From an uncultured virus (IMG/VR IMGVR_UViG_3300042356_001097) (taxonomy: Duplodnaviria > Heunggongvirae > Uroviricota > Caudoviricetes): 64,000 nt of DNA. Both the position numbers and the translations under genes were made by a program. Position 1 is the stretch's first letter; every line of letters starts with the position of its first letter. The stretch is taken from IMG/VR virus record IMGVR_UViG_3300042356_001097; one strand, written 5' to 3'. Of this stretch, positions 322-63,769 are shown piece by piece. A model generated the notes under the pieces. It saw only the letters and a program-made list of their open reading frames with translations, was not told the DNA's origin and made no database searches.

Positions 322-3300
322 TTTATTTCCTTTACCATTAAGGTTCCATCGTCCAAAGTCGACAGAACAACATTACACTTCATGCCTTCTCGCATCTTAG
401 CAAGAGACATCTTATACATTGTGGGGAAAGCAATTACTCTAGTTAATTCTTTTTGTGCATTTGAAAGAATTATATGGCTCATTGTCTTGCCAGCCTTTGT
501 TACGTATGGAGTAAAGTCTACTACAATATACTCGTCTTCGTCAAGGTCATACTGCTTCTTATATAGATAGTCTACAAATGAGTTAGACCCTGTTGGATCA
601 ATCTCGCTAACCTTTACATAACGAGCAATTCTATTATCACCGACAAGAATGAAATACATCTGTCCTGTCTCTATCTGAGTCTGCTCTGTATGGAATAGAC
701 CAATAGATCCAGTTTCATCTACTAATTCGATACGTGCCCAGCCATTGCCACGCTTAATTGATTTAACCATACCAAACATAACAAATGATCCTAGATCTTC
801 AAACTCTTCAATCGGTCTTGCTTGTGACTTAATACGTGGTGGAATTCCCTCTAGGTTGAATGTAGGTATACCTAGATATTCGTAGTAACTATCTTTTTCG
901 TTTCCGCTTCTAGGATTATCTGGGAATGCCGCTCCGCCAATTGCATTTAAAGCAGATATAGCACGGCTATTGATTCCGCTACCTTTTTTAGAAGCTTTAT
1001 CAATAAACTCCGAGTAAGAAGCAAATGGTCTTTGATCAATAATTTTGTTTGCAATACTATCTGAAATAAATTTTACTTCTCCGAGACCAAATCTAATCGA
1101 GTCTTCCTTTAAAGAAAAGAATACATCAGACTCGTTGATATGTGGAAGCTTAATACTTAACTTTAATCTCTTAGCCTCAATCAGATACTCTGTTCTTTTG
1201 TCCTTGTCATTTTCGTTTTTAAGAATCGAAAACATGAACTCAAGTGGATAATAAAACTTAAGCCAAGCAGTATAATAACTAAGCATAGAGTAAGCAACAG
1301 CATGGGAGCGGTTAAAAGAATAACCAGCATGCGCTTCAAAAGTATGCCAGAGCGTTTCGGCTTGCTTCTTAGAAATGTGTTTTGAAGCCCCAGCAATAAA
1401 CCTATCTTTGAATTGGTCGAACTCTTTTGCATCTTTCTTCTTTCCAATAATCTTGCGGACCTTATCAGCCTCTGACCAAGTCATACCGCCCAAGTGTACG
1501 CATGCCTGCATAACCTGTTCTTGATATATAATAACACCGTATGTATTCTCGGTAAAGGGCTTCATAATTGGATGAATAAACTGGACTGCTTCATTACCGT
1601 GTTTACGCTTGATATAAGAAGCACCTACTGTATTCATAGCTCCTGGACGAACTAATGCATTTGATGCAGCAAGATCTTCAAACTTATCTACGCCCATCTT
1701 AATTAGCAAATTGGTATATGGGGTTGCTTCTGCTTGAAATACTCCCTTTGTATACCCTTCGCTTAGAACTTTATAAACATCGGGATCGTCAAGGGTTAAC
1801 TCTGAAAGATTAATATCTTTGCCTGAGCGCTTTTTAATCGAAGCAAGTGTATCTGAGATCACAGATAAAGTCTTAAGACCTAGTGCATCTAGCTTAATAA
1901 GACCTATATCTGCAACCGTATCCATATCGTATGCAACGACAGGAATTCTACCTGATACTAAATCACTTGCGTCCGCTCTTGATTCAACAGGAGCATATTT
2001 TCTTAAATCATCTTTTGCAACTACAACACCTGCAGCGTGTACTCCAACAGATCTAATTCTTCCACGAAGTCTATCTGCAAGCCACAAGACTTCAGGGTAT
2101 TTGGTTCTAAACTCCTTAGTATTTGGCGACTCAACAAAGTCTTCAAAGGTATCAATAGACTTCATTGCACGGTTAACATCTGAAAGTGGAACCATAAATA
2201 CACGAGCAGCATCTCTAATTACACCCTTATCTTTAAAGTAAGTGTATGTAGAAATAGATGCAACGTGCTTAAACTTCTTCTTTAAATAATCCTTAACCTC
2301 TTTACGACGGCGGTCTTCAAAGTCTGTATCAATATCTGGAAAGTCATTACGCTCTGGATTAATAAAACGGAAGAACAGTAAATCATACTCTATTGGGTCC
2401 ACATCAGTAATTCCTAATGTATAACAAACTAAAGATCCAGCTGCGGAACCACGGCCAGGACCAACCATAATATTATTTTCTTTAGCCCAGTTAATCATAT
2501 CTGCCACAACTAAAAAATATGATGCAAAGGACTTGTTTCTAATTACTTCTAATTCTTCCATTAATCTTTGCTCATACACATCATTTCCTAGCCAGCCGTC
2601 TGTTAAACGTAGCCTTTCTAGGCCCTGGAAGGCCATCTCAGCCAGTTTCTGGTCAGCATCGGTCTTAGGTACAGGGAGTAGGTCTAGACCCCTGTTAAAA
2701 TCGTATTCTTCAATTTTGTCTGTAATCTCAATTGTATTCTCATATATATCTGTACGAGTAATTCCAGACGTATTAAAATCAGCCTCAATTTCATCCCTTG
2801 ATTGAATGAATAAATTGTAGTCCTGAAATGATATTCTACGATCTGGATACAGGTAATTTAATCTTTCATTAATATCTTTAATCTGTCTAGACATTTCAAA
2901 GTCAGCATCTTTATCCATCTTAGGAGATGTTGATAATATGAGCATTGCTTCTTCTAATACTCTATCTTCTTCTTTAGCAAAGTGGGCATCACCTGTTGCC
3001 ACCGCCTTAATATTGAGCTTGTCTGCTAATTCTAAAAGGGCGGAGTTGATCTCCACAGGGTTATGTGATTGCACTTCCACGTAAAAATCTTGTCCGAAAG
3101 TTTGTTTAAAGCCTTTGAGAAGAAGTTCTGCTTCCTCCATGTTGCCTTTATCGATAGCCTTACTAATGAGTCCATTAAGACATCCGCTGAGAACGATAAT
3201 ACCTTCGCTATAATCATTTAGAACCTCTCTGTCAATTCTTGGCTTATGGTAAAAGCCTTCGTTCCAAGCAAGCTCTTGGAGAGTATTAATATTCTCTAAT

Positions 3301-17817: not shown

Positions 17818-20800
17818 TAGCTAATCCCCACATTCATTTTAGGACCTAAAGCAGATGCTGCTCGGCTGTCCATGCTCTTTATGGCTGTTACTGTTTGTTG
17901 AGTTACCATTCTTGACAATTGATTTAAATCTCCGTCGTATCCGTTAATATTATTTGTAATATTATATGTTGCTCCACCCATTGTAGCATTATTAGCGTTT
18001 GGATTAAAGGGGTTCATGTTAGCTGGAACAACTGCTTCATTCTTATGAATCATGGCAAGCATATCAACAGGTACGCTATTTATTCCAGAATCAAATGATG
18101 GAACAGACATTTTTGCAGAGTATGTTGGATTTACATATCCGCCACTTGCAAAGCCAGAAGGCCACAGATTTTTTATCTCTTTTAATGACTTTGCTGTAGC
18201 TCCAAACATCTGTCCATAAACTTGTCCTGGCAATGAATATATACTAGGCAACATCTTTAATAGATCGTCTCCGCCTAATACTTGTGGGAACTCCATGCTA
18301 CCCTGTGCAGAGCCATTTCTTATCGCCCCTTCACCTAGGAAATTTTTAAGCTCGGATATCTTTTTATCAATTCCAAACATTGGAAGCTCTTCACCGAGTT
18401 TTGCTTTACCTATCATTGCGCTATAGAGTGCGGCTATATGTGGGTTAGTTGAAAAATAAGTACCTAGATCTTTTTGTCCAGTTCTCCAGGCATCTCCTAT
18501 TGTTCCTCTTACTCCCTTAAATAACTTAATGGCTTCGTCTGGAAGCAAGTCGTAAAATTCTTTTGCATAGTATTCATTAAACTTTGTAACATCAGAAAAA
18601 TCAATTTTTGGATATTTCTTTTTTAATAGCGTTTCTCTTTGTGCCTGAATAATTTCCCAAGTTGAGGAAGAAGTTACTCCCTCTTTTAATCCTTCAAGAG
18701 CAGCCTTAGCAGATGATGGGTTAAAGCTAATTCCAGTTTCTGGAATTTTTATTGAAGATAGATCCATCTTTGATAAAGCCTGCATTGCCTTAGCATCAAT
18801 GTCTGCCATACCGAAAGATTTCATTTCTGGTGTAAGATGTGAAACTGCTCCCGCTACTTTAGGTACTGAGGAAGATATTCCCTTTCCTGCCCCACCGCCA
18901 ACTGGCAATAAAGCCATTGAAAGAAATTCTGTTTTAGACTTTTTACTAAACGGGGTTGTAATGTCAAAGCCTAATACATTCTTAACTACAGAGTTTGCAG
19001 CACTTGATAAAGTTTTACCGAACCATTCCATTCCCATTCCAAATGGGTTTGGCATTGTTGGTGAACTAGAGCCATGCTTGTGCCCAACTTTTCCGCCTTC
19101 ATGAAACTTGCCAGCATTTAAATCATCAAAGAATGAAGAGCCGAATTCTTTTTTAGCTTTTTCAACTGAGTCTGCCTTTATTACCCATTCCCCATCAGAT
19201 AGCATTGCAGGAATTGAATCAGATGTTTTTGTACCTGGCCCACTGACTCCACCGCCGTTGTCATAATTATTAACCTGACCACCCATTGCCTTTTTCTCTG
19301 CAGGAGTAATTTTTTGTAGTTGTACGTTAAACTTATCATCAACTACTTTAAACTGAGCAACAGATCCATCTTTATTTGTAAGAGTAAATTGAGTATCTTT
19401 TGCAAAATCTTGTTGCTTTGCATACTTCTTAACTATTTCTCTGTCTGATGTAGGACCAAAACTAGTATCCCAGCCTTTCTCTGTAATGGTTTCTCTTATA
19501 GGAACACCTAGTTTTTCACCAAGAGCAACTGATGCTGATCCTCCTTGGAATGGGTTTCCGTATGAGCCGTCGCCGCCCTTGCCTGGCTTAAACGCATCTT
19601 TACCTACCATTATTGTAACTTCACCGTTTGTTACAATAGTCTTTACTGAGCCAAGGCCGCTTTCAAGATTTTTCATAAGCCTTGCGCCTAGGTCTATATC
19701 TTTTAATCCATCAATCTTTATTCCTGCTTTTTGTGCAGCGTCTCCGATAGCAGCAAGCTGTTCTCTTGCAACTCTACTTGCTTCCCACTTCTTTCTTTCT
19801 GCTGGCTCCATACTAGAAAGCTTGATTTGATAATCTAACATTGAAGAGTTTACTGCATCTATTGCAGATTCTTGTGTTGCAATTGATTTTGTAAGATCTC
19901 CTAATTTTTCTCCCGCAATTGCAGCATTGTCAGAAAGCTTTTGCTGCTTCTTTTGCATTGCCTCAATCTGCTTAAGAAGTGGAGCATTCTTTACATCTCT
20001 TGCATTTTCTTCATTCTTTACTTGTGCATTAAATTGAAGTTGGCTTTGTAGGCCTTCCATATCAAGGCTTGCTTGTTGTGCTCCAGCGGTATTTCCTGTT
20101 GCGATAGCTGCGTCATACTCTGCTTGCTTTTTAGCAATCTCTCTAGCAATGTCGCCTTCTTCTTTTGCGGCAGTTAGGGCTTTTATTCTTGCATCAGCAA
20201 GCTTATTATTAAGATCAATCTGCTTTTGAAGAGCAGACATTTTTTCTCTATCAGAGATTTGATCTGCAACCTTTTGGCCTTTTGCTGCTCTTTCGTATGC
20301 TGCTTGACGCTGCTTGTCTCTATCCAACTTGGCATACTGCTTTTCTAGTGCTCCGCCTTTGGCTCTATTAGCAGACTCGATTACTTTACCTAATGCTATT
20401 TGAAGTTGGTAAAGATCATTTGTTTGAGCAGCTGTTAAGTTTCTTAAGTCACCAGTATATCCCTTAACTTGAATTCTTGTTTTTTGCCAGAGTGAGAGTG
20501 CTGTGTCCTGCTCACTAACTATCTGTCTAATAGATGGATCTATCTTAGCCATTTCATCTACAACTTCTCTAGTTAGAACTGCTTGGCTTTGAACATCCTT
20601 GTTAATTGCTTCAATTGCTTCTTCTTCTGCTTTTAGCTTGGCCTGCTTTTCATCTCCCGATGAAAAATATCTTCCCTCTTTAGTTGCCAGGGCACGTTCC
20701 TTTTTAACTGCATCTGCCTGTCTTTTTTCTACATCTGTTGATAAGGCCATTAGTGCAGTATTTAATTGATTTGCTTGCTCTGTAGGATCACGATCAGTAG

Positions 20801-23800
20801 CCATTGCAGCGTTTAGGCTTTCTAAAGCTGATGCTGCTGCTGTTGCAGTATCTTTAATTTCATTAAACTTACCTTTTGAACCTACTGTAACCTTAGACGC
20901 AATTGATGCAAACTCAGAAGATGCATACATTGTATATATCTTTTTAGACGCTTCTTCAGCAGATACTCCCATTGCAATCAGTTGCTCTTTTAATCTTATT
21001 GCAAGAGCTTCTTGTTCATCTGCACTTGTCTTGTTAATTAAAAGAACTTGATCCGAGTAGTTATCCTTAACTTCTTTTTTAAGCTTCTTATACTCTTCGA
21101 TAGTAACATTGATTGGAGTTCCAGAACCCTGCATGCTTTCGTATAAAAGCGTGTTTCTTTCTTTAAGAGCTTTTGCATTAGCAATTGCTTCTTTAATCTT
21201 ATCGTTAAAGTTTGTAAATTTAAGTCCTGCTTTTTCTGCTTGTTCAGCAGTCATTCCGTAACCTAGAGCATTTAAGCGCATTGATTCTTGATGAGCCTTG
21301 TATCTGTTTATAGCAATTCCTATAGCCAGTGATCCAGCTCCAACTATAAGATTTAATCTTGTAAGTGATTTTGCTGCGAAGGCTCCCATCTTTGCAAACT
21401 TTCCACCTTCTAATGAAGCTTTTTCAAGCCTCTCTCCATACTTTGTCAATACCATTAGGTCTTTACCGTTAACAGTAACTCCCTCTAAGGCTTTAGTTGC
21501 TCCTATTGGAGCTGTAAGCTTACCCTTGCTTGTCATTGGAGCTTTTGCTCCACCACCGAACCCGCTGCCTCCCATGCCAAGCATAGATCCGAGCATCATT
21601 CCTATGAAATCTCCGCCTGGAATACCGCTTGCTTTTCCTGCTGCTTGACCACCGTATGCTCCTAGCATTTGCATAAGCATCATCTTAATCATTCCGCCCA
21701 TATTGTATCCTTGAGCAATTCCATATTTATTACTTGGAACAATGCCGCCTGAGTTTCTAGGAACAAATAGTTCTGGACCCTTTTCTCCAACAATGTAAGG
21801 CTGTCCTGAATTAACTGGGCCGCCCATTTCTCTTTTTTCTAAACCAAATATAATTTTCTTTAAAGATTCTGTAAGCGGGGTATCCTTTTTAGAATCCCAA
21901 TTTAAATATTTGTTTCGCAAAATGTCTTTATCAATTGGAGAAAGTTGTTTAATTATGTTTCTGTCTCCAATAAGATCTGAAGCGGCTGATCTTATTACAG
22001 AGTCTAGTACGTCTGGCTCAAGTCCGTTCTTTAATTTACCATCTGGCATCTTTACATATCCGTAAGGTTTTTCTTTTGCTAGTGCTGCCGCAAACTTGTC
22101 ATAGAATAATTTTTGAGTATGCTTTCTTAAACCTGTGTTTGCAAATAGCTTGTCGGCCATTTCAATAGATAGAGAGTTCACTCCCCATGGAGCTGACTCG
22201 TACATACTTGGCTTAGGTGCTCCTGTTGGACCAAAACCTGCACCAATTCTATGCATTGCTCTACCCTTAAGAACATTTCCGATCATTCCACCAATGTTAA
22301 ATCCGTTTGAATCATTCTTAAAATCGTTATCTGATAGGCTTGCAGCGTGACCTTTTTGTCTACGCTTTAATTCATCTGCTGCAATCATTTTAGCAATAGC
22401 TGCTGGTGTCATTTGTTTCTTTGGAGTAATTTCTATTGATGAATGAAGAGCATGAAGATCTCTATAATTTTCTCTTCTTGCATCAGATAGTCTTTGAATC
22501 ATTGCATTGTAGACAACCGTCTCTTCTGGATTTAAATCAAATCTAGATATTGTCTGCTTTAGTCTTGGAAGAACATTTTCAATTTCATCCAACATTCTTT
22601 GATGATATTGATCTGCCGTCATACCCTTTGGGATATCTGAAGTTGCTTCAGCAAAGAATTTCTTTGTGTTACTTCCCTTTACTCCAAGAAGGTTGACAAA
22701 TGCTTGATGCTTAAATGAAGGCATTGTTGCAGAATAATCTGAGTCTCCAGAGGCTGTGTTAAACACACCTGAAGTTCCGCCGTCTGCAACACGATTCCCT
22801 CCTAAATTACCCCTAGCTAAGTCTTTGTCTCCACGCAATGCAGATAAAGATAATTGCTTAAAGTATGTATCTTCATCAAATGTGTCAGGCATATTTGCAA
22901 AGTCTGTGTCGTACTTAGACTCTAATGCTAATACTTTTCTGCGGCCTGCTGGATCTGTTGGGTCTTTAATTACAACAACTCTTTGGTTGGGAGCCTTTAA
23001 CCCATTCTCAAGATCATTAGTAATTTCATTAAATCTTGATTCAGCAAGTGCTCTTTTTTCGCTTACTACTGGTTTAACAAAAAACTTTTCTCCGTTTCTA
23101 GAATATATTCCACCTATTCCACTAACTGGGAAGCTGTGGCCCTTGTCGTCTGATTGTAGTTTTTCATCATACGTAGTTACCTGATCTTTGCTGTATCTAG
23201 AATTTTTAACCGCTTGATCTGCTTTTTCCATGGCAGCTCTTGCTGCTCTCTGGGCTTCAACCTGCTTAATAGTTTTAGGCATTCCCAAGAACATTGCTTT
23301 GCCGCCGCCAAATAATCTTTGTGCAAACTTTCCTGGAATTTCTCCACCTTGTGCAAATCGTCCTTCTATTTCTCCGCCTTTATTTGCAGTTTTTGCTATC
23401 TGACCAAACCCAAGACTTTTAGAAGCTACTCCTCTTCTCATTAATTTAAATAGTTGTGGGAGAGAAATAATTCCCTTCCTTCTATCTAGAATTGCTTGTG
23501 GAACTGTTGTGCCAAATCTTTTTAGCCAAGACCTGTCCTGTAGTGCTATTGCTTTATCTGTCATAAGAACTTCGTCTGGAAAATAAGAAAATGATCTTTG
23601 TCCCTTGATGGATAAAGCCCTTCTTACATCATTTGCTGCTGTATTTAAATCTGCTTCTCCCCAAAATGCCTGTCCAAAGTTTCCAGCAGATTTATATCCC
23701 CATTTAGCATCTGGGCTAGTGTGTGTGCTGTGCAAGTTTGTTGCAGAGACCTTTCCATATTTATCTATTACCCATTTGCCGCTTTTTTTCTCAAAGCCTA

Positions 23801-26800
23801 AATCTTTAAATAGCCTATCAACAAAATCTTTTCCGCCAAACTTATCTGGATTATTATTAATATAATCTAGCATGGCTGGAGTAGGTCTAGCGTCGCTAGC
23901 ACCAATTCTTCCAACTGCGTCTGTGTTAAGTTGTCTTCGGTTCTTTGGATCTACATTAGAGTTAGCATCTCTTACAAGCTTAACCGCAGTATTAAATTGT
24001 TTTTGTCTTATCTCTCTCCATACCTTTTTGTCTATAGTTCCATTTTCACCCATTGCTCCGTCAGGTTTAGGTAACATTGCTTGTCTATAGTTTTCGCTTG
24101 CTATTTCAACCGCCTGATCAATAGGTATACCCTTATTGTTTAAAACAGTTGCATCATGCATTACGCTTCTATGAGCTAATTCTTTTTGCCATCCTCCAGG
24201 TCCGCCTGGTTCAAATGCATTTTGATATCTTTCTTGCAAACGTAGAATTTTTTTCCAAGTTCCCCAGTCAGGATTTCCACCTTCAGATAATCCAAATCCA
24301 GTATTGCCTGGACCTCCATTTAATGAATACATTAAAGGCATATCTTTTTGTGCAATATCTGCTGGAATGACAGCCTCTCCTGGTGTCAATACAACAGGAA
24401 CCTGCCCGCCCCTATTCCTATATACTGGTCTTCCACCAAGTAGGTTTTGAATAATTGGCATATTGGCTTCTGTGCCTGCTTTGTTAATTACAAAAGATCC
24501 TTCTTCAGCCGTTGTATGATAAGTATCTGTGTTTCCAGTTCCTGGAACTATACCGCCCTTATTAAATTTAGGCTTTGTTGTTTCAATATTATATCCTGCA
24601 CCTGAAGTTCTAACTCCGCCCAGTGCTCTTGCAATTCTATCCACAAGAGTTTTTGTAGGACCCTTATGAAACATTTCTTTCATGTTAGATTTTCCAGTAG
24701 CTGGATCGACCACTGGTTGGGATGTAAGTGGAACGGTTGTTAAGTTTGCAGTTCTTCCCATAGTGCTTGCAGTTAATGCAGTAGTTTCCGCAAGCATTGC
24801 TTCAACTGTTGCATTTAATTGAAGTATCTTTGCTCTTGCTTGATCTACTGTTATTTTGCTTGCTTGAAGTTGCTTAACAATTGCTGCAGTTTCTTGTGCC
24901 GCTAAAGATGTGATTTCGGTAAACTGTGGAAGCAAGGCTTGGTAAGAATCTGAAAGGCTTGCTGTAACTGTACCTGTTGACATAACTTCTGCTTTTAATA
25001 ATTTAAGTTCCGATTCAGATTGCATTGCAATTGCAGCAGTCATAGCATGCCATTTTGCTGCTTCTTGTGCGACAATTCCTGTTGATATTCCATTTACAGA
25101 AGTTACTCCAGGTATCCTAGGCAGATCTGAATCCATATAAGACTGTGGGTTACTTCCAATTCTAATGTTTACTGGCTTAGCTCCTGGGACTGTTCCAAAG
25201 ATTGTTCCCATTTGTTCTGTAGCTGTTGGTGTAAAGTGAGACATATCTCTTGTGTAAGACTTACCTACTAATGGATTATTCTTATCAACAATTCTTTGTC
25301 CGCCTGGTGTTCCCGCTGATATTACTGACCCTGCAACTGTTGAAATTCCTGGTTGCACTGCAACTTTTGCTGAGTTTGCTTTTATTTCAAGATTATCAAA
25401 TGATGCTGCAAGAGTGTTTATTGCATTTGTTAATACAACTGTTGCCTCTGTGTCTGAATAGAATGATGTAGCAAGGCCTTTTGCCGCAGCGTCTGCTGCC
25501 ATAATTTCTGGTGTTAGAAGTTTAAATCCTTGACCACCTCTAGCTAATTGTCTTAGATGAAAAATTCCCTTGATAACATATCCAATAAAGTTACCCATTA
25601 CACCAGCCAACATAATAAGAGGTCCAGATACTGCGGTTATTCCTCCTAGTACATTTAGGAATGTCTTTACTGGCTGAGGAAGCTTCTGGAAGAATTTAAT
25701 AATTCCATCTACTACTTCTAAAACCTTTGTGCTAATTGTTAAAAATTGATTTCCTACTGCTGCAAGATCTGCTTGAACTGAAGCAAGGGCTCTCTTAAAT
25801 TTACCAGAGGCTGACTCTGTCATCATTCCTAATTCTCGGGATGATATGTTTGCAAGATCTGTTGCACTTGCCTTCATGAGATCCATTACTTGAAGTGTCT
25901 GAGATCCTTCTTTTCCTAAGTTTTCAAATAGGGCAGACATTCTTGCATACTGGAACTTACCAAATAGCTGCTCAATTGCTCTTGACTTGCTTAACGGATC
26001 TAAATTATCTAATGCGCTCTGCAGTTCAACAATTGTTGCTGTTAAGTTACCTGCGTTAGATGTTACAATTTGATCAATGTTTATTCCAAAGCCCGTAAAC
26101 ATTTCCTTGGCAACCTTTGTTGGGTTAATAAGAGAAGCCATTGCTGACTTGATTGCGTTAGCACCTTCTGATGCGTTTACTCCGCCCTCTTTCATTGCAG
26201 TTAAATACAATGCTAAATCTTTTACGTCTCCACCTAGTGACTGTACTACTGGGCCTGCTTTAGGAATTGCTTCAACTAAATCCGCAAGGCTTGTTGAGGT
26301 TTGGTTTTCAACTGCGTTAAGGAAGTCAATTGATTGCGTTAATTCATCTGTACTGGACTTAAATGCATTTTGAATAGCAAGAGTTGCCTTCATTGCTTCT
26401 TGTCTATCAACTTCTCCAAGCACTGCAAGTCTTGATGTTTCTTTTGTTGCCTTGAGTAGCGCCTCGCCCTGTTGCCCTGTTGCGGCTAAATCTGCAGCAA
26501 GTGCGATTGTATCTTTGAATGCAATACCATATGACCCTGCAATTTCTCTTGCAGTGTCCGAAACATCTTTTCTTACTTTTGCAAGCTCTGTTGCAGATAC
26601 GGCAGATAGACCACCATAAACCTTTGTTAGTCTTACTAACTCTTGATCTGCTTCTCTAAACGCTTTTTGTGCAGCCATTCCAAATGCTGCTAAAGGTACT
26701 GTTAGTCCTACTGTTAACTGACGACCAGCCCACTGAGTATTTTTACCCCAGTTAATAAGTTGATTGGATCCATCAAGCATAACCTTATTCATAATGGCTA

Positions 26801-40692: not shown

Positions 40693-41769
40693 CTAAAAGA
40701 ATATATATAAATCGCCAGCTGCAGTGCCAGTTGGTGGCGTTCCAGATGTGTTATAGAATATTTTATTTGAGTTTGCAGTATTTGTTCCGTTTGAATATGC
40801 TGTAGTTGCAAGGTTTATATTTGCACCGAGTGCTACTGGGGCGTTGTTAATTGATATTGATGAGTTTACAAGCATAGCATTAGTAATTGATCCTGGTGAT
40901 GGGGTTCCGACTGGTCCGTCCGCTCCAGTGTCGCCTTTAGGTCCCTGAATACCTTGTATACCTTGTGTGCCCTGTGCGCCTGTGTTACCAGTTAAGCCTT
41001 GTATTCCCTGAATACCTTGTTCTCCCGTGTCACCTTTTGGTCCTTGGATACCTTGTGGACCTAAATTAGAAACTGTAATAGAGCCAGCCATTGATGAGTG
41101 GTATTCGCAAGCATAATAAAGTTGAGGGGCATTAAATGGAACTTCAAATATAATTGTTCCATTATCCCGTGTTCCTGAAGATAATGTTACTCCAGTAGAA
41201 TAAACATTTCCTGCGCTATATGCACCTGAAACTGTTTGAATCCAAAACGGATGTCCGACTGCATTAACATTAATTACATATCTATGCCCCCGAATAAAAG
41301 ATAAAGTTGGATTAGCAGAACCATTAATTGTATATGAACCAGATCCCGAGTTTGTAACGGCTAAAGTTATTCCGCCTGAAGCTCCAGTTGCACCAGTGTC
41401 TCCAGTATCTCCTTTAGGACCTTGAATACCTTGTGGGCCTTCTGGGCCAACGATCTGGCCAGCGGATGTCCAAGATGTGCCGCCCCATATATATAGATCT
41501 CCATCGGACTGTACAATTCTTGCATCGTTTGAGCTGTTGCCAGTTGTTGGTAGGGCAGCTACATTTACTACTGATGCTTTAACATTAATAGATGTTCCTT
41601 GTGGCCCTACAGGCCCTACAGGCCCTTGTGGACCCACTTCTCCTTGAGGTCCCTGAGCACCTGTTGTAATTCTTTGAAGGGTCCATGCAATTCCGTCCCA
41701 AATCCATGTGCTTCCACCAGCGGTGAATAATTGATTCAACGATGGGCTATTTGGAAAATCGATTGCCAT
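40693..41769 (-). CDS. collagen-like fibre with cupredoxin-like domain
   Basis: MAIDFPNSP...W.WDG..W; G-X-Y repeats; GHPF...YYACEYHSSMAG; C-terminal GDLYI. Confidence 0.75.
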   Translation of the reverse strand: MAIDFPNSPSLNQLFTAGGSTWIWDGIAWTLQRITTGAQGPQGEVGPQGPVGPVGPQGTSINVKASVVNVAALPTTGNSSNDARIVQSDGDLYIWGGTSWTSAGQIVGPEGPQGIQGPKGDTGDTGATGASGGITLAVTNSGSGSYTINGSANPTLSFIRGHRYVINVNAVGHPFWIQTVSGAYSAGNVYSTGVTLSSGTRDNGTIIFEVPFNAPQLYYACEYHSSMAGSITVSNLGPQGIQGPKGDTGEQGIQGIQGLTGNTGAQGTQGIQGIQGPKGDTGADGPVGTPSPGSITNAMLVNSSISINNAPVALGANINLATTAYSNGTNTANSNKIFYNTSGTPPTGTAAGDLYIFF

Positions 41770-42005
41770 TATATCTCCCTTATTCCAGCTATTGCTTTTG
41801 CTTCGGCTTCTGTTAAGCCTAAAGAGGTTAGCTTGTCTATAGCAGACTGTAAGTTGTCAACAACCGATTGGTCGGCAACTGGAATCTGCGAAAGAATTTC
41901 ATCTACCTGAATAGAGACCTCTTCATTTACTGATATTTCTGCCTCTGTATACTCACGTATTGTTGTCTCACCAGTCTCGTAATTAAATTCTATAATATCG
42001 CTCAT
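41769..42005 (-). CDS. small fibre-associated chaperone-like protein
   Basis: N.ETGETTIREYT.AE...AIDKL.SLGLT..EA; TAATG-coupled start at 42005. Confidence 0.6.
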   Translation of the reverse strand: MSDIIEFNYETGETTIREYTEAEISVNEEVSIQVDEILSQIPVADQSVVDNLQSAIDKLTSLGLTEAEAKAIAGIREI

Positions 42006-44311
42006 TATTGTGCTCCCCACAAAACCCAAGTTCCACTTGAATAAGATGCTCCATCATTTGTAGCGGCAACTATTGAAGTAACCTTTGCGGATCCCGTATA
42101 AACTCCTGCAAATGTACCCATTCCAGAACTGTTCGCATCTGACCACTTTCCACCAGAAGATCCATAAAATGATATCCCAGATGTTGTATTTGCACCATCT
42201 ATGTAAACATATCCTGAAGCATTTGGTGTTCCTAAAACATTTCCAACGCTTCCAGCATTTGTTCCTTTGAACGACCAATTTGTTAATGCTGGTATTGAAG
42301 AGCTATTATATGCAACAGAGTATATAAACTCATGGTTAGTTGAGGCATTATTTAATCTTATAATAGGGATAGTAAAAGCACTGCCTGAATAAACTCCGCT
42401 CCACACTAGTAAATATTTATTATAACCGCTTAGCCCAGTAAAGGAAACAGTGGTGCCAGAATTTGAAGTAACAGTACCTATTTTTGTATAACCTGAAGGA
42501 GATCCTGGTTTTGTAGAAGATGTCCAGTCTATTCCTAGTCCTGGAATTCTAAATCTGTCTATAGCGTCATTGCCAAGTGTTATCTCATTTGAAACTGTTG
42601 CTGATGATGGGTTTGACAAGTTGCCCAAAATAATATTATTATCTCCAGTAGTTAATGAATTTCCTGCTGCTCTTCCTATTGCTGTGTTAAAGGATCCATG
42701 AACAAGATCTAATGTACCAGGACCTATACCTATGTTGTAATTACCAGATTTGTCATATGGAATATCTTCTGGAAGTCCAGACATTGATGTATTACCGATT
42801 GCTATGTTATTGGAACCAGTTTCTATTGCAAACCCAGCAAGAACTCCCATTGCAATGTTATTGGATCCAGTGCTTATTCTAGATAGCGATGACATTAAAG
42901 CTAAGTTTTGAGTACCTGTTGTAACCAAAGTCATGCTTGTATTTGGCACTGAAGGTGTTAATGAAATATTATTGTTTCCTAATTTACTTACATACTGGCT
43001 TGTACCCGCTGGTCCTACATCTCCAGTGTCACCTTTTACACCTTGAATTCCCTGTGCGCCCTGTGGGCCAGTATTGCCAGTTAAACCAGTAGGCCCTTGT
43101 ATTCCCTGTATGCCTTGCTCTCCAGTATCGCCTTTGTCACCCTTGAGGCCCTGAATGCCTTGAATACCTTGATTTCCTGTATCACCTTTAGGTCCTTGGA
43201 TACCTTGTGGACCTTGTGGTCCAACAATCTGTCCTGCTGAAGTCCAAGATGTACCATCCCAAATATAAAGATCACCATCTGCTTCTACAATTCTTGCATC
43301 GTTTACAACGTTTCCTGTTGAAGGCAATGCTGCAACAGTTAAAGAAGATGCTTTAAGATTTATAGCAACTCCTTGCGGGCCTTGAATTCCCTGATCTCCT
43401 GTATCGCCTTTAGGTCCTTGGGGGCCAGACAATGAAGATCCAGTTTCTACCCAGTAAGAGTCGTAGTATGTATAACTTCTTCCGTTGTCTGAATTAAACC
43501 AGGCTTGTCCATTTACTGGATTTGCAGGAGGAGTTGCGGCTGTAATAGAAAAAGTTGCTTTGCTTCCTTCATTTCCTTGATCACCCTTAAGGCCTTGCAA
43601 ACCTTGTAAACCTTGTATGCCTTGAATTCCTTGTAGGCCTTGCAATCCTGTGTTACCTTGTGGACCAACTGGCCCCTGCTCACCTTGATCGCCTTTGTCG
43701 CCCTTAAGTCCTTGTATTCCCTGCAAACCTTGTGGACCTGTTGTTCCTGTTGGTCCTGCTGGGCCTTGAAGAGCTCCTGCATCAAACCATGAACTTGTTA
43801 CTGTATCCCAAACCATAAGTACGCCAGTTGAAAGAATTAACCAAGCATCGCCTGCGGCTCCAACTAAATTAGCTGAAGTAAATGCAGATGGTGTTGCATA
43901 GTTTCCAAGAATTGTTAATGCTGTTCCTGTATCACCTTTAACGCCTTGTAAGCCTTGTGGACCTTGCAAGCCTTGTATACCCTGTGGACCCTGTTCACCT
44001 GTGTCACCTTTAGGTCCTTGCAAACCTGTGTCACCCTTAACGCCAGGGTTTCCTTGCGGTCCTGGGACAGTACTTGCTGCTCCTGTGTTTCCCTGTAAAC
44101 CTGTTAAGCCTGTATCACCTTTAGGGCCTTGAATACCTTGTGGGCCTTGTGCACCTTGTGGACCCGCTGGACCTTGTGGTCCTGTAGGTCCTGGATTGTT
44201 TGTTAAATAATTATCTATGTCTGTTGCTAAATAGCCAAGGTCTCTTGGGACATCGGGCGACATGTCTAATGTCGGATATCTGAATACTTTAGGTGTTGTA
44301 TTTCCTGGCAT
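42005..44311 (-). CDS. collagen-like tail fibre/adhesin
   Basis: Long GPQG/GDTG repeats; YadA-head-like TGSNNIAIG repeats; beta-rich tip domain. Confidence 0.8.
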
Positions 44312-61109: not shown

Positions 61110-62456
61110 TTAATTTACCCTAAATTCATCTATTGTGTATCCTTGGCTTGCGTTTGAAGCTCTTGAAATTATACCATGATCTTTTGACTTTTGTCCAGTA
61201 TTTGTTGTAGTTAGGTCTGATCCAACTTGGGAAGAATAATTTACATCTGAATAAGCTTGAGCTGTAACACTATTGCCATCTGTGGTCACCTTAATGCCAG
61301 CAATTGCTGTAGTTGAATTGCTTGTTGAGGATATAACTGTTTCTGAACCGCCTTCTTTTTTAATTAAATCTATTTTATGATGGTCTGCACAGTTGCAATT
61401 ATAAGTGTAGGATGAAGCACATCCGCAAGATGCATTTGGTCCATAGGAATATCCGTCGCAGTATTGGCACTGATTATATGCTCCACAAACTGTGCATGAA
61501 GTATATCCTGTACAATATTGACATGAATTATTTGCAGCACAAACTGTACAGCTTGTGTAAGATGTACAGCATGACTGTTGTGAATATCCTGTACAAACTG
61601 TACAACTTCCATATGCAACACATTGTTGGCAGCTACCGTACACTGCACAATATGATCCCGAGCATTCGCTGTATGAAGAGCATGTTGTGCATGTTCCATA
61701 ACTAAAGCATAATGTTACTGCACAAAATGTTGGCTGGCCACAAACAACTCCGCCTTTGTATGAATTATAAACATATGCGGCACAGCAAAAATTACCATAG
61801 TATGTATAGTACTCTGTACAACAACTACTTGTCGTATAGCCAGTGCAGCATGTATAGTAAAATGGAACACTTGCTATGCAGCACTCATAATTTGAATAAG
61901 CAACACAGCATGTTTGTGTTCCATATGAGGAGCATACGGTACATGTTCCATATCCATTGCAGCAACTTGTTGTAGTATATGAAGCACATCCGCAACTTCC
62001 GTCTGGTCCATAATTGTATTGGTTGCAGCATGTAGTCTGAGTATATGAAGCACAACCACAAGATGCATTAGACCCATAGGCGTATGAGCTACAATAAGAA
62101 CAGCTATTGTACTGTCCGCATGCTGAACAAGTTTGACAAATATTTGTTGTATTTTTTACTACCGCCCAATAGTTCCCAGAGTCTGTTACCCAAAAAGCTG
62201 GGCCTACACCCGATGCTGGATTTTTTGCTTTAATACTTGCATTTGTAGATGAAAATGTTGTTGAAATTAATGAACCTAATGCAACAGATGTTCCTTTTCC
62301 TGCAGCAATTGTCCAACCAGCAACTACATGCTTCCATTTTGCGGAAGTCAATCCTGCATTTACTAGCGTCAGTCTACCAAAATCTTCTACAAGAGAAAGC
62401 AATGCTTTTAGCCTTGAGACGGATGCGCTATGTCTTCTTCTGGGTCCTCTTGGCAT
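61110..62456 (-). CDS. beta-sandwich protein with a 250-aa, 50-Cys insertion (putative fibre tip)
   Basis: TAATG-coupled start MPRG at 62456; Cys-free flanks GVGPAFWVTDSGNYWAV and KIDLIK...HGII...IDEF. Confidence 0.75.
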   Translation of the reverse strand: MPRGPRRRHSASVSRLKALLSLVEDFGRLTLVNAGLTSAKWKHVVAGWTIAAGKGTSVALGSLISTTFSSTNASIKAKNPASGVGPAFWVTDSGNYWAVVKNTTNICQTCSACGQYNSCSYCSSYAYGSNASCGCASYTQTTCCNQYNYGPDGSCGCASYTTTSCCNGYGTCTVCSSYGTQTCCVAYSNYECCIASVPFYYTCCTGYTTSSCCTEYYTYYGNFCCAAYVYNSYKGGVVCGQPTFCAVTLCFSYGTCTTCSSYSECSGSYCAVYGSCQQCVAYGSCTVCTGYSQQSCCTSYTSCTVCAANNSCQYCTGYTSCTVCGAYNQCQYCDGYSYGPNASCGCASSYTYNCNCADHHKIDLIKKEGGSETVISSTSNSTTAIAGIKVTTDGNSVTAQAYSDVNYSSQVGSDLTTTNTGQKSKDHGIISRASNASQGYTIDEFRVN

Positions 62457-63769
62457 TATGCAGTTGTATCTCCTGTAACCAACCAGGAGTTTGCTGCTCT
62501 TTTTTCTAACATAATCGTGCTCCACTGAACTCTTGATTTAAATTGAGAATCTGTTCCCTGCATTGTTACCGCTGCATCTTTTGTTATAGTGACTTGCCCA
62601 GTTCCGATTTGTCTGACTTCAACCATTGATCCAATTGGCCATCCTGCATCTTGGGTATCATTTGGAATTGTAATTGTGCAAGCAACGCTGCATTCAAGAA
62701 GGGTGTTTTTATCTGTTGCAGAACTAATTGTCCGTGTTGCAGATGATACTGGAATATAAGTAATCAAGGCTTTTGTATTATCAGAGGTATTGTCTACATT
62801 TGAAAGACCAACCATGTCTTTTGTGATTCCGCCTACCGTTCCAGTAAAGGTTGGTGAAGCAATTGGGGCTTTATTACCTAGAGCGGTAGTAATAGTTGCT
62901 GCGTATGAAGCATCATCATTTATTGCTGCCGCAAGTTCATTTAAAGTGTTTAATGTTTCTGGGGCAGAATCTAAAAGATTTGATACTGCTGTAGTAACAT
63001 AAGACTGTGTAGCAAAATCTCCATCTGTTAATGCTGCATTAAATTCAGCCAGGGTTCCACTAAGAGTATTTCCTCCTACTGATATAATAAGTCTCGTTCC
63101 GCCACTAGTTGTTACTATTCCTGATACATATCCTATTCCAGAATTTACTACAGAAATAACTCCTTCTGCGCTAATGCTTATTCTACCGCCCCGATCAAGA
63201 CCTGCCTGATAAATTGCTATATCGCTTTGCCCAAAAAATCCAGATATGTTATCGTATTGAGCAATTGATGTAATCCCAGTTCCAAGACCAATTGTTTTGT
63301 TTGTTAGAGTTTGAGCTAAAGTATTTCTTGTAATTTCTGCTGGTATTTCAGAATCTGGGATTTTACCCGTTTCATCAAGTGAGGCAACTCCGTCTGCATT
63401 TCCAACAATACTAAGAGGTACATAGCTTGCTGCTGACGTGCTACCTAAACCAGAAACGGCGGTATCGACATAAGTCTTATTAGCAATAGTGCTATCAACT
63501 GCAAGGGTAATTGTATTTGCAGTATCGTTATAACTTTTTGTTATTCCTGTTCCAGCTGTGATTGCAGATTCAACTGCATCTTGAGCAAGCTCTGAAAGTT
63601 CGCTTGGCAAAATATTAATATATGGAAGAGATGTCCACAAGCTTGTGCCATTGCCAACTTTTAATTTATTTAATGTTAAATCTAGTCCTAGTTCACCAGA
63701 TTCTAAAATTTTAGTAGATGAATTCCATTGGGTAGTTGTGCCTCTTCTTATTCTTATTCTAGATGCCAT
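62456..63769 (-). CDS. fibre protein with Mtd N-terminal-like domain and C-terminal adaptor
   Basis: RIRIRRGTTTQW...LESGELG...KVGNG..W..LPY; APETLNTLNELAAA; TIP...PIG..QIG.GQVT...W.V.GD. Confidence 0.75.
   Translation of the reverse strand: MASRIRIRRGTTTQWNSSTKILESGELGLDLTLNKLKVGNGTSLWTSLPYINILPSELSELAQDAVESAITAGTGITKSYNDTANTITLAVDSTIANKTYVDTAVSGLGSTSAASYVPLSIVGNADGVASLDETGKIPDSEIPAEITRNTLAQTLTNKTIGLGTGITSIAQYDNISGFFGQSDIAIYQAGLDRGGRISISAEGVISVVNSGIGYVSGIVTTSGGTRLIISVGGNTLSGTLAEFNAALTDGDFATQSYVTTAVSNLLDSAPETLNTLNELAAAINDDASYAATITTALGNKAPIASPTFTGTVGGITKDMVGLSNVDNTSDNTKALITYIPVSSATRTISSATDKNTLLECSVACTITIPNDTQDAGWPIGSMVEVRQIGTGQVTITKDAAVTMQGTDSQFKSRVQWSTIMLEKRAANSWLVTGDTTA

Follow-up and report, generated by a model that had tools for sequence, protein, structure and literature searches.

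Tape measure proteins (TMPs) with enzymes inside them are not without precedent: the TMP of mycobacteriophage TM4 has an embedded peptidoglycan-hydrolase motif. The enzyme inserts so far known in TMPs are muralytic cell-wall hydrolases, which work outside the cytoplasm and without ATP. The subject of this analysis is an insert with a different fold, a predicted kinase, in the TMP of an uncultured virus whose DNA is represented by a 64,000-nucleotide stretch (IMG/VR record IMGVR_UViG_3300042356_001097; Caudoviricetes), the whole of which is referred to below as the window. The motifs of TM4 type are likewise globular enzyme modules, dispensable for tail assembly, in TMPs of an actinobacteriophage lineage; the module of the window's TMP differs from them in having a kinase fold.

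A second comparison is with the phage "polyvalent proteins", large multi-domain and probably virion-delivered proteins in which a protein-modifying kinase domain is also found (PMC5512222, in part). As described by Iyer et al. (2017; PMC5512222, in part), the polyvalent-protein kinases lack a C-terminal kinase subdomain and are carried by MuF-type proteins in phages of Verrucomicrobia and Bacteroidetes, whereas the window's cassette has a helical C-lobe and is carried by a TMP; the phrase "tape measure" is absent from the available text of that survey. Full-text literature searches for kinases carried by tape measure proteins returned nothing relevant. Enzyme modules in virion proteins are a known kind of object; the sequence family described here and its TMP carrier are new.

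In structure, the best match is to CotH, the spore-coat Ser/Thr kinase of Bacillus cereus (PDB 5jd9/5jda; PF08757). Its fold is kinase-like but atypical, and two aspartates, D228 and D251 in the B. subtilis protein, are catalytic (PMC7821199, in part). Like the window's cassette, CotH belongs to a large protein assembly, but the two are only 9-10% identical, PF08757 is not matched, and CotH is a free-standing protein of ~360 residues made by spore formers rather than a cassette in a phage TMP. Among the top matches, identity is highest (15-17%) for CtkA (JHP0940; PDB 3akj/3akk/3akl), a kinase that Helicobacter pylori secretes; CtkA is a stand-alone bacterial protein without a sequence-level match in PDB searches. 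Somewhat further away are the type II phosphatidylinositol (PI) 4-kinase and the Legionella lipid-kinase effectors LepB and MavQ (Z 9.4-10.1 across the whole core), the latter two being kinases that are delivered into another cell, and the HipA/HipT toxin kinases (Z 8.0-9.1). Unlike HipA, the window's domain has no antitoxin (HipB/HipS) partner, because it is internal to a 3151-residue structural protein; the neighbours of the TMP gene are tail genes.

Conservation of the active site

The original prediction had placed a HipA/PI3-4K-like kinase domain inside the tape measure at window positions 22440-23140, which corresponds to TMP aa 1378-1611. The six motifs that it listed, from GIGGIY to ADGG, are all present on the minus strand in the order and at the coordinates given, between aa 1385 and aa 1499 (Table 1). 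It had also asked whether the Lys, Glu, Asp and Asn of these motifs are kept in homologs. A search of 1.84 billion representative proteins (HMMER) with a 363-residue segment, TMP aa 1318-1680, yields 162 relatives at E<=1e-3, of which 133 are at E<=1e-30. Nearly all of them are parts of proteins 2000-4500 residues long; the TMP N-terminus is recognisable in 113 of the 150 relatives listed, and the other 37 are mostly fragments that start in or near the domain. For residue counts, the best 150 of the 162 relatives were stripped of 20 partial sequences, leaving 130 core-covering homologs (27-77% identical to the window's domain) that, with the query, make up an alignment of 131 rows. (Record G001 is uninformative on conservation because it is 100% identical, being the same phage.)

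Eight residues are invariant in all 131 rows: G1378, G1388, K1400, E1411, P1428, Q1473, N1489 and D1497. D1484 and S1380 (130 rows each), L1485 (129), Y1390 and G1499 (128 each) are nearly so, and D1482 is found in 125 rows, with Asn in the remaining six. In the 119 closest kinase-carrying TMPs (see below) the catalytic positions are retained without exception, save for D1497 (118 of 119, with one Glu). Lys, Glu, Asp, Asn and the second Asp are thus invariant or nearly so and, judged by this alignment, the kinase motif set is not the product of chance. The concern originally raised over activity, that the His usual in loops of the HipA type is replaced here by Ala1486, was misplaced. That position is variable throughout the family (its commonest occupants are Ser, 53 rows, Gln, 29, and Gly, 22), and the family's catalytic loop reads D-K-D-L-x-x-x-N. 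Its Asp and Asn are five apart, the spacing of ordinary protein kinases (HRDLxxxN) and not of DRHxxN.

The coding sequence tells the same way. The median ratio of nonsynonymous to synonymous substitution (dN/dS) of the cassette is 0.10 (range 0.015-0.35; 319 pairs with dS 0.1-1, from 73 viral-contig copies), and it is 0.12 in the comparison with L007, for which dS is saturated. By this measure the cassette is under purifying selection.

These observations bear on whether the fold might be a dead one, or one that does not transfer phosphate: a pseudokinase that only binds nucleotide, a structural or length module, or a domain with another chemistry, such as AMPylation or glutamylation. The kinase fold does serve chemistries beyond phosphotransfer (SelO, SidJ), and pseudokinases such as PAN3 appear among the structural matches described below. 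Pseudokinases typically lose at least one canonical catalytic residue, however, and here, over 131 sequences of which some are only 27% identical to the window's, the five canonical catalytic positions vary hardly or not at all, with dN/dS at ~0.1. We regard a domain of this sort as very unlikely; conversely, we think it quite likely that the cassette is catalytically active.

Predicted fold and structural neighbours

An AlphaFold model of the segment, made from a 37-sequence alignment (A1), has a predicted local distance difference test score (pLDDT) of 87.5 and a predicted template-modelling score (pTM) of 0.80; 274 of its 363 residues score at least 90, and block means over the kinase-fold core are 84-98. 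(The corresponding single-sequence model, with pLDDT 45, was unusable.) The modelled elements follow one another in the order of protein kinases. First come a strand, the Gly-rich loop, a strand, a strand with K1400, a helix with E1411 and two more strands; a helix whose last residue is R1480 is next, and the D..N loop, short strands, D1497-x-G and a helical lobe complete the series. As modelled, the cassette has a bilobal protein-kinase-like (PKL) fold, with a β-rich N-lobe that includes αC, and a helical C-lobe. It combines the attributes of that fold: two lobes, K1400 with E1411, an Asp...Asn catalytic loop and a putative metal-binding Asp.

Comparison of the model with 48,161 representative chains (VIA-align) puts CotH first (5jda, Z 11.8, 217 residues aligned, 3.9 Å), followed by MavQ (Z 10.1), PI4KIIα (10.0), CtkA (9.8), Golgi casein kinase/Fam20 (9.0) and, at Z 8.7-8.8, HipA (8.8), ATM and PI4KIIIβ; all 50 of the 50 best rows are kinase-fold proteins, judged by their titles. 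Rescoring of Foldseek matches again favours CotH (5jd9, Z 11.9, 213 aligned, 3.7 Å), followed by CtkA (11.0, 203 aligned, 4.2 Å), PI4KIIα (9.9), LepB (9.4) and HipA (9.1). The CotH match extends over model residues 44-288 and occupies structural ranks 1-2, tied within 1 Z with CtkA. Foldseek's own ranking starts with CtkA (E 5.8e-4, probability 0.98), followed by CK2, LepB, IRAK4, CylM, PAN3 and COQ8A. The language-model neighbours in the ESM Atlas, which serve as leads only, are LepB_N, PI3_PI4_kinase, actin-fragmin kinase and HipA_2 clusters, with scores of 0.88-0.93. A kinase fold is predicted, then, and the model's matches are all kinase-fold structures; taken with the conserved residues, they bear out the proposal that a kinase-fold domain lies inside the tape measure.

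Sequence-family searches give no such assignment. The nearest Pfam kinase match among the 37 members of A1 is to HipA_2, in one member and not significant (E 0.021). The Pfam models for CotH, PI3_PI4_kinase (PF00454), HipA_C and Fam20C match none of the 37, and PF08757 (CotH) does not do so even at E<=10; the CotH profile also found no match on the G001 record, though control genomes matched. Pfam searches with the whole TMP and with the 363-residue segment return PhageMin_Tail plus noise only. In their source databases these proteins are named "TP901 family phage tail tape measure protein" or "hypothetical". Because no Pfam kinase family is significantly matched, the cassette counts as a new sequence family with the PKL fold, and not as a member of HipA or PI3/4K. 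The label HipA/PI3-4K-like is partly right: HipA and the PI3/PI4 kinases are structural neighbours, but their Z scores of 8-10 reflect a shared fold only. CotH and CtkA are closer (Z 11-12), the HipA and PI3_PI4 Pfam models have no significant match and the position of the His of DRHxxN is not conserved.

The lipid kinases among these neighbours call for a separate word. The cassette might phosphorylate a host membrane lipid, for example phosphatidylinositol in actinobacterial membranes, at the place where the TMP inserts, and lipid phosphorylation might then aid channel formation or mark the membrane. The placings of MavQ, PI4KIIα and LepB just cited, along with those of Vps34 and PI4KIIIβ (Z 8.7-9.0), are in keeping with this, as are the nearest named ESM clusters, which carry LepB_N and PI3_PI4_kinase, and the location of the cassette between two hydrophobic TMP segments. 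The nearest cultured kin infect Streptomyces (with portals 55% identical), and inositol phospholipids are synthesised in mycobacteria (PMC6506517, in part). Against these points stand the higher scores of the protein kinases CotH and CtkA and the unmatched PI3_PI4 Pfam model, and we consider a lipid kinase improbable.

In the BFVD collection the model matches large phage proteins of several domains. The top matches (E 1e-4 to 1e-3) are 830-1340-residue proteins named as ADP-ribosyltransferases, from an uncultured Caudovirales phage and Mycobacterium phage Onyinye, a 1201-residue "portal protein, HK97" and a protein of a Haloarcula tailed virus; head-morphogenesis names also occur among them. 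These suggest that related kinase-fold modules may reside in other multi-domain proteins that are virion- or capsid-packaged.

Boundaries, loss and divergence of the cassette

A search with TMP aa 1-900 finds 3182 proteins at E<=1e-20. In the 120 best of these (82-100% identical, the window's own included), a local hidden Markov model (HMM) detects the kinase 119 times, always at aa ~1235-1325. The sole exception, P0264, is 81% identical to the window's TMP over aa 1-999 and lacks exactly the kinase cassette. Its sequence runs from FAQRLFGGD directly into GFDIGG, where the window has FAQRLFGGG, then KAMFLGMP...NDSN, then GFNIGG. This junction sets the limits of the cassette, of about 330 residues, at aa ~1324-1656, with a Gly-Gly linker on either side, and the deletion shows that it can be cleanly lost. 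A module of P0264 just upstream of the junction (aa 1006-1260) is unrelated to aa 1000-1295 of the window's TMP (there is no BLAST alignment), from which it appears that neighbouring cassettes are exchanged too. The cultured relatives, which are Streptomyces phages, are also without the cassette; the 2084-residue TMP of one of them, phage Wofford, has an HMM score of -14.3.

At least 282 IMG/VR stretches encode the cassette. Two scans of 185,579 species genomes with a few exact peptide patterns, which are of limited sensitivity, found no relative, and hence neither a prophage copy nor a clue to the host. Divergence is faster in the cassette than in the TMP N-terminus: for most close relatives, identity is 60-72% in the cassette vs 82-93% in aa 1-900. 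Four of them (P0159, P0160, P0166 and P0174) carry the window's allele, at 94-99% identity. In the comparison with L007 the cassette is 77% identical and the TMP modules downstream of it 32-58%.

The loss of the cassette in nature has a bearing on the proposal that the kinase does its work during morphogenesis, in the cell that produces the virus, with no role in the next host. The targets would be the TMP itself, tail chaperones or tail proteins, and their phosphorylation would control tail assembly or the metastability of the TMP. ATP is present in the producing cell, and a domain that acts there avoids the unfolding problem raised below. The best structural match is, moreover, a kinase that patterns the assembly of the spore coat by phosphorylating its structural components (PMC7821199, in part), and the almost invariant Ser1380 (130 of 131 rows) in the Gly-rich loop could serve, at a guess, as an autophosphorylation site. 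But the structural match speaks to fold and not to function, inspection of the TMP by eye reveals no Ser/Lys/Arg-rich repeat substrate like CotB or CotG, and relatives without the cassette (the Wofford phage with its TMP, P0264) build tails. On balance an assembly-time kinase seems to us unlikely.

What the kinase may do

The explanation that we favour, and think probable though well short of assured, is that the kinase-fold cassette is catalytically active as a phosphotransferase, forms part of the virion, is expelled with the TMP and acts early. A predicted kinase fold, together with every catalytic residue, implies that the virus particle probably carries a ready-made kinase. The cassette appears to keep the entire set for ATP/Mg phosphotransfer (Gly-rich loop, K1400, E1411, D-K-D1484-L-x-x-x-N1489 and D1497-x-G). 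It would thus be an ATP- and Mg-dependent phosphotransferase, present in the virion as part of the TMP, that would leave the tail with the TMP at infection and act on a protein or a lipid ahead of any phage gene expression. That the kinase acts in or at the infected cell after ejection with the TMP is the less secure part of this proposal, a step that we regard as distinctly possible without calling it probable. The purposes originally proposed for an injected kinase, host takeover or anti-defence, are candidate roles for it.

A more elaborate version makes the TMP an effector-delivery vehicle, with its Gly-Gly modules as cargo. The kinase would regain its fold at the inner face of the host membrane and phosphorylate a host target as the opening event of infection, ahead of the transcription of any phage gene. 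The target might be a defence protein, an envelope protein or the phosphatidylinositol lipids that are typical of actinobacteria, and an arms race with it would then account for a surface that diverges fast around an active site that stays invariant. We offer this version tentatively, as rather unlikely in its entirety.

A number of observations weigh against a virion-borne, ejected kinase. Not one of the 37 members of A1 is significantly matched by a Pfam kinase family, the PDB yields no kinase in a profile search with A1 (nor in a search with the single sequence) and hhalign gives the comparison of A1 with E. coli HipA a probability of 0.2. The Foldseek TM-scores are low (0.2-0.3), with only one PDB match at E<=1e-3, and we infer the placement of Lys, Glu, Asp, Asn and Asp in an ATP site from motif order and predicted secondary structure. 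The natural TMP P0264 presumably works without the cassette. There is also no cultured carrier: tblastn with the cassette against 50,697 phage records found no match, while the TMP N-terminus matches 345 of those records. Finally, a folded domain of ~35 kDa should not fit inside a siphophage tail tube, so that unfolded transit and refolding would be required, and ATP is available in the cytoplasm only.

A kinase with an intact active site in a TMP implies either that a portion of the TMP gets into the host cytoplasm still able to refold or that phosphorylation regulates tail assembly; either would be new for the biology of siphophages. No Pfam model recognises the kinase-fold family that the cassette defines, and the clean boundaries of the cassette should make it easy to express and test. 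Should the kinase be delivered, it would be a host-modifying enzyme made in advance, much like the proteins that other phages eject, and would also provide a handle on an abundant, uncultured phage clade.

The carrier protein and its phage

The protein in which the kinase cassette resides is a TMP. Residues 238-438 match PF10145 (PhageMin_Tail, E 7.2e-28), and the N-terminal ~850-1100 residues match ten PHROG tape-measure families (best 2.8e-112), with two further such families touching short later stretches. Its gene lies between those for the tail chaperone and the minor tail proteins, and the protein has great length and hydrophobic segments, the cassette lying between the two hydrophobic regions (Table 1). 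The gene order, portal-protease-capsid-tail-chaperone-TMP-minor tail, is that of Streptomyces phage Wofford (family Stanwilliamsviridae). All long open reading frames (ORFs) of the window, and every ORF taken as a gene, are on the minus strand; among their products are a DNA polymerase, a single-stranded DNA-binding protein, a primase, a helicase, tail proteins, a head-tail adaptor, a capsid-type structural protein, a maturation protease, a portal and collagen-like fibres. With the portals of ~130-kb Streptomyces phages this portal shares 55% identity. The identical TMP sequence is present on 23 contigs, the longest of 109,168 bases; the G+C content of the window is ~39%, and there are no tRNA genes in its 64 kb. 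The phage, a siphophage that is large and uncultured, is distantly related to those ~130-kb phages, and we infer that its host is an actinobacterium.

Table 1. Positions of the tape measure gene, its kinase cassette and related features in the window
Feature	TMP residues	Window position	Strand	Remarks
TMP gene P0001	3151 aa	17817..27272	minus	single uninterrupted ORF
Hydrophobic segment	537-571	25560..25664	minus	Kyte-Doolittle 19-residue mean up to 1.88
Hydrophobic segment	1969-1988	21309..21368	minus	Kyte-Doolittle mean 1.69
Kinase cassette	~1324-1656	22305..23303	minus	edges from natural deletion variant P0264; local HMM envelope aa 1321-1650
Kinase-fold core	~1361-1614 (model residues 44-297)	22431..23192	minus	range aligned to CotH, CtkA, PI4KIIα, HipA
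Gly-rich loop G1378-H-S-F-P-V-S-G-I-G-G-I-Y1390	1378-1390	23103..23141	minus	between model strands 53-56 and 71-75
GIGGIY	from 1385	23120-23103	minus	
FFVKP; Lys1400, putative ATP-phosphate-binding Lys, strand β3	from 1397	23073..23075 (Lys1400)	minus	model strand 78-85
LAE(S) (ALAE); Glu1411, putative αC Glu	from 1409	23040..23042 (Glu1411)	minus	model helix 88-104
LKAP	1425		minus	
Catalytic loop D1482-K-D1484-L-A-R-G-N1489 (DKDLARGN)	1482-1489	22806..22829	minus	after model helix 150-163
ADGG	1496	22787-22776	minus	
D1497-G-G1499, putative Mg-binding Asp (DFG equivalent)	1497-1499	22776..22784	minus	
IQRL	1592		minus	
Upstream Gly-Gly linker, NKGGEIEGRFAQGGEIPGKFAQRLFGG	1297-1323	23304..23384	minus	5' junction of cassette in P0264
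Downstream Gly-Gly linker, GFNIGGMIGNVLKG	1657-1670	22263..22304	minus	P0264 similarity resumes at aa 1663
Non-coiled Gly-Gly-linked modules	1000-1295; 1660-1815; 2560-2660; 2800-3040	23388-24275; 21828-22295; 19293-19595; 18153-18875	minus	no Pfam match

Other features of the tape measure gene and the window

A plus-strand ORF of 142 residues (22756-23184) overlaps the kinase region; it is taken as spurious because hundreds of relatives keep, at the protein level, the frame to which it is antisense. Following the kinase core, at window ~22329-22400 on the minus strand (aa ~1625-1648), there is a short motif A-A-I/L-A-K ... L-K/R-x-R-Q-K/R-G-H-A/S-x-x-L-S-D that is seen again in several distant homologs; it lies in a helix along which pLDDT drops from 93 to 52, and it may be a processing site, a mimic of a substrate or a helix for docking.

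Besides the kinase cassette, the TMP has four more non-coiled modules between Gly-Gly linkers, which are entered in Table 1. A by-eye R / S-T-N / E pattern made aa ~2880-3000 a candidate ADP-ribosyltransferase, but no support for it was found. Nine of the 120 closest TMPs (P0008, P0234, P0235, P0246, P0248, P0250, P0258, P0261 and P0268), 3680-4190 residues long, carry, besides the kinase, a domain of the OmpA family (PF00691, precomputed); Pfam finds no such domain in the window's TMP. Module content therefore differs among these TMPs, with a module in some that is likely to bind the cell wall.

Elsewhere in the window, two adjoining minus-strand ORFs at 40693-44311 (358 and 768 aa) have repeated stretches that match dozens of PHROG tail-fibre and collagen-like families. 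A 437-residue ORF at 62456-63769 (minus strand) starts with an Mtd_N domain (PF18454, E 1.6e-11) and may be a receptor-binding protein of the kind that is targeted by diversity-generating retroelements.

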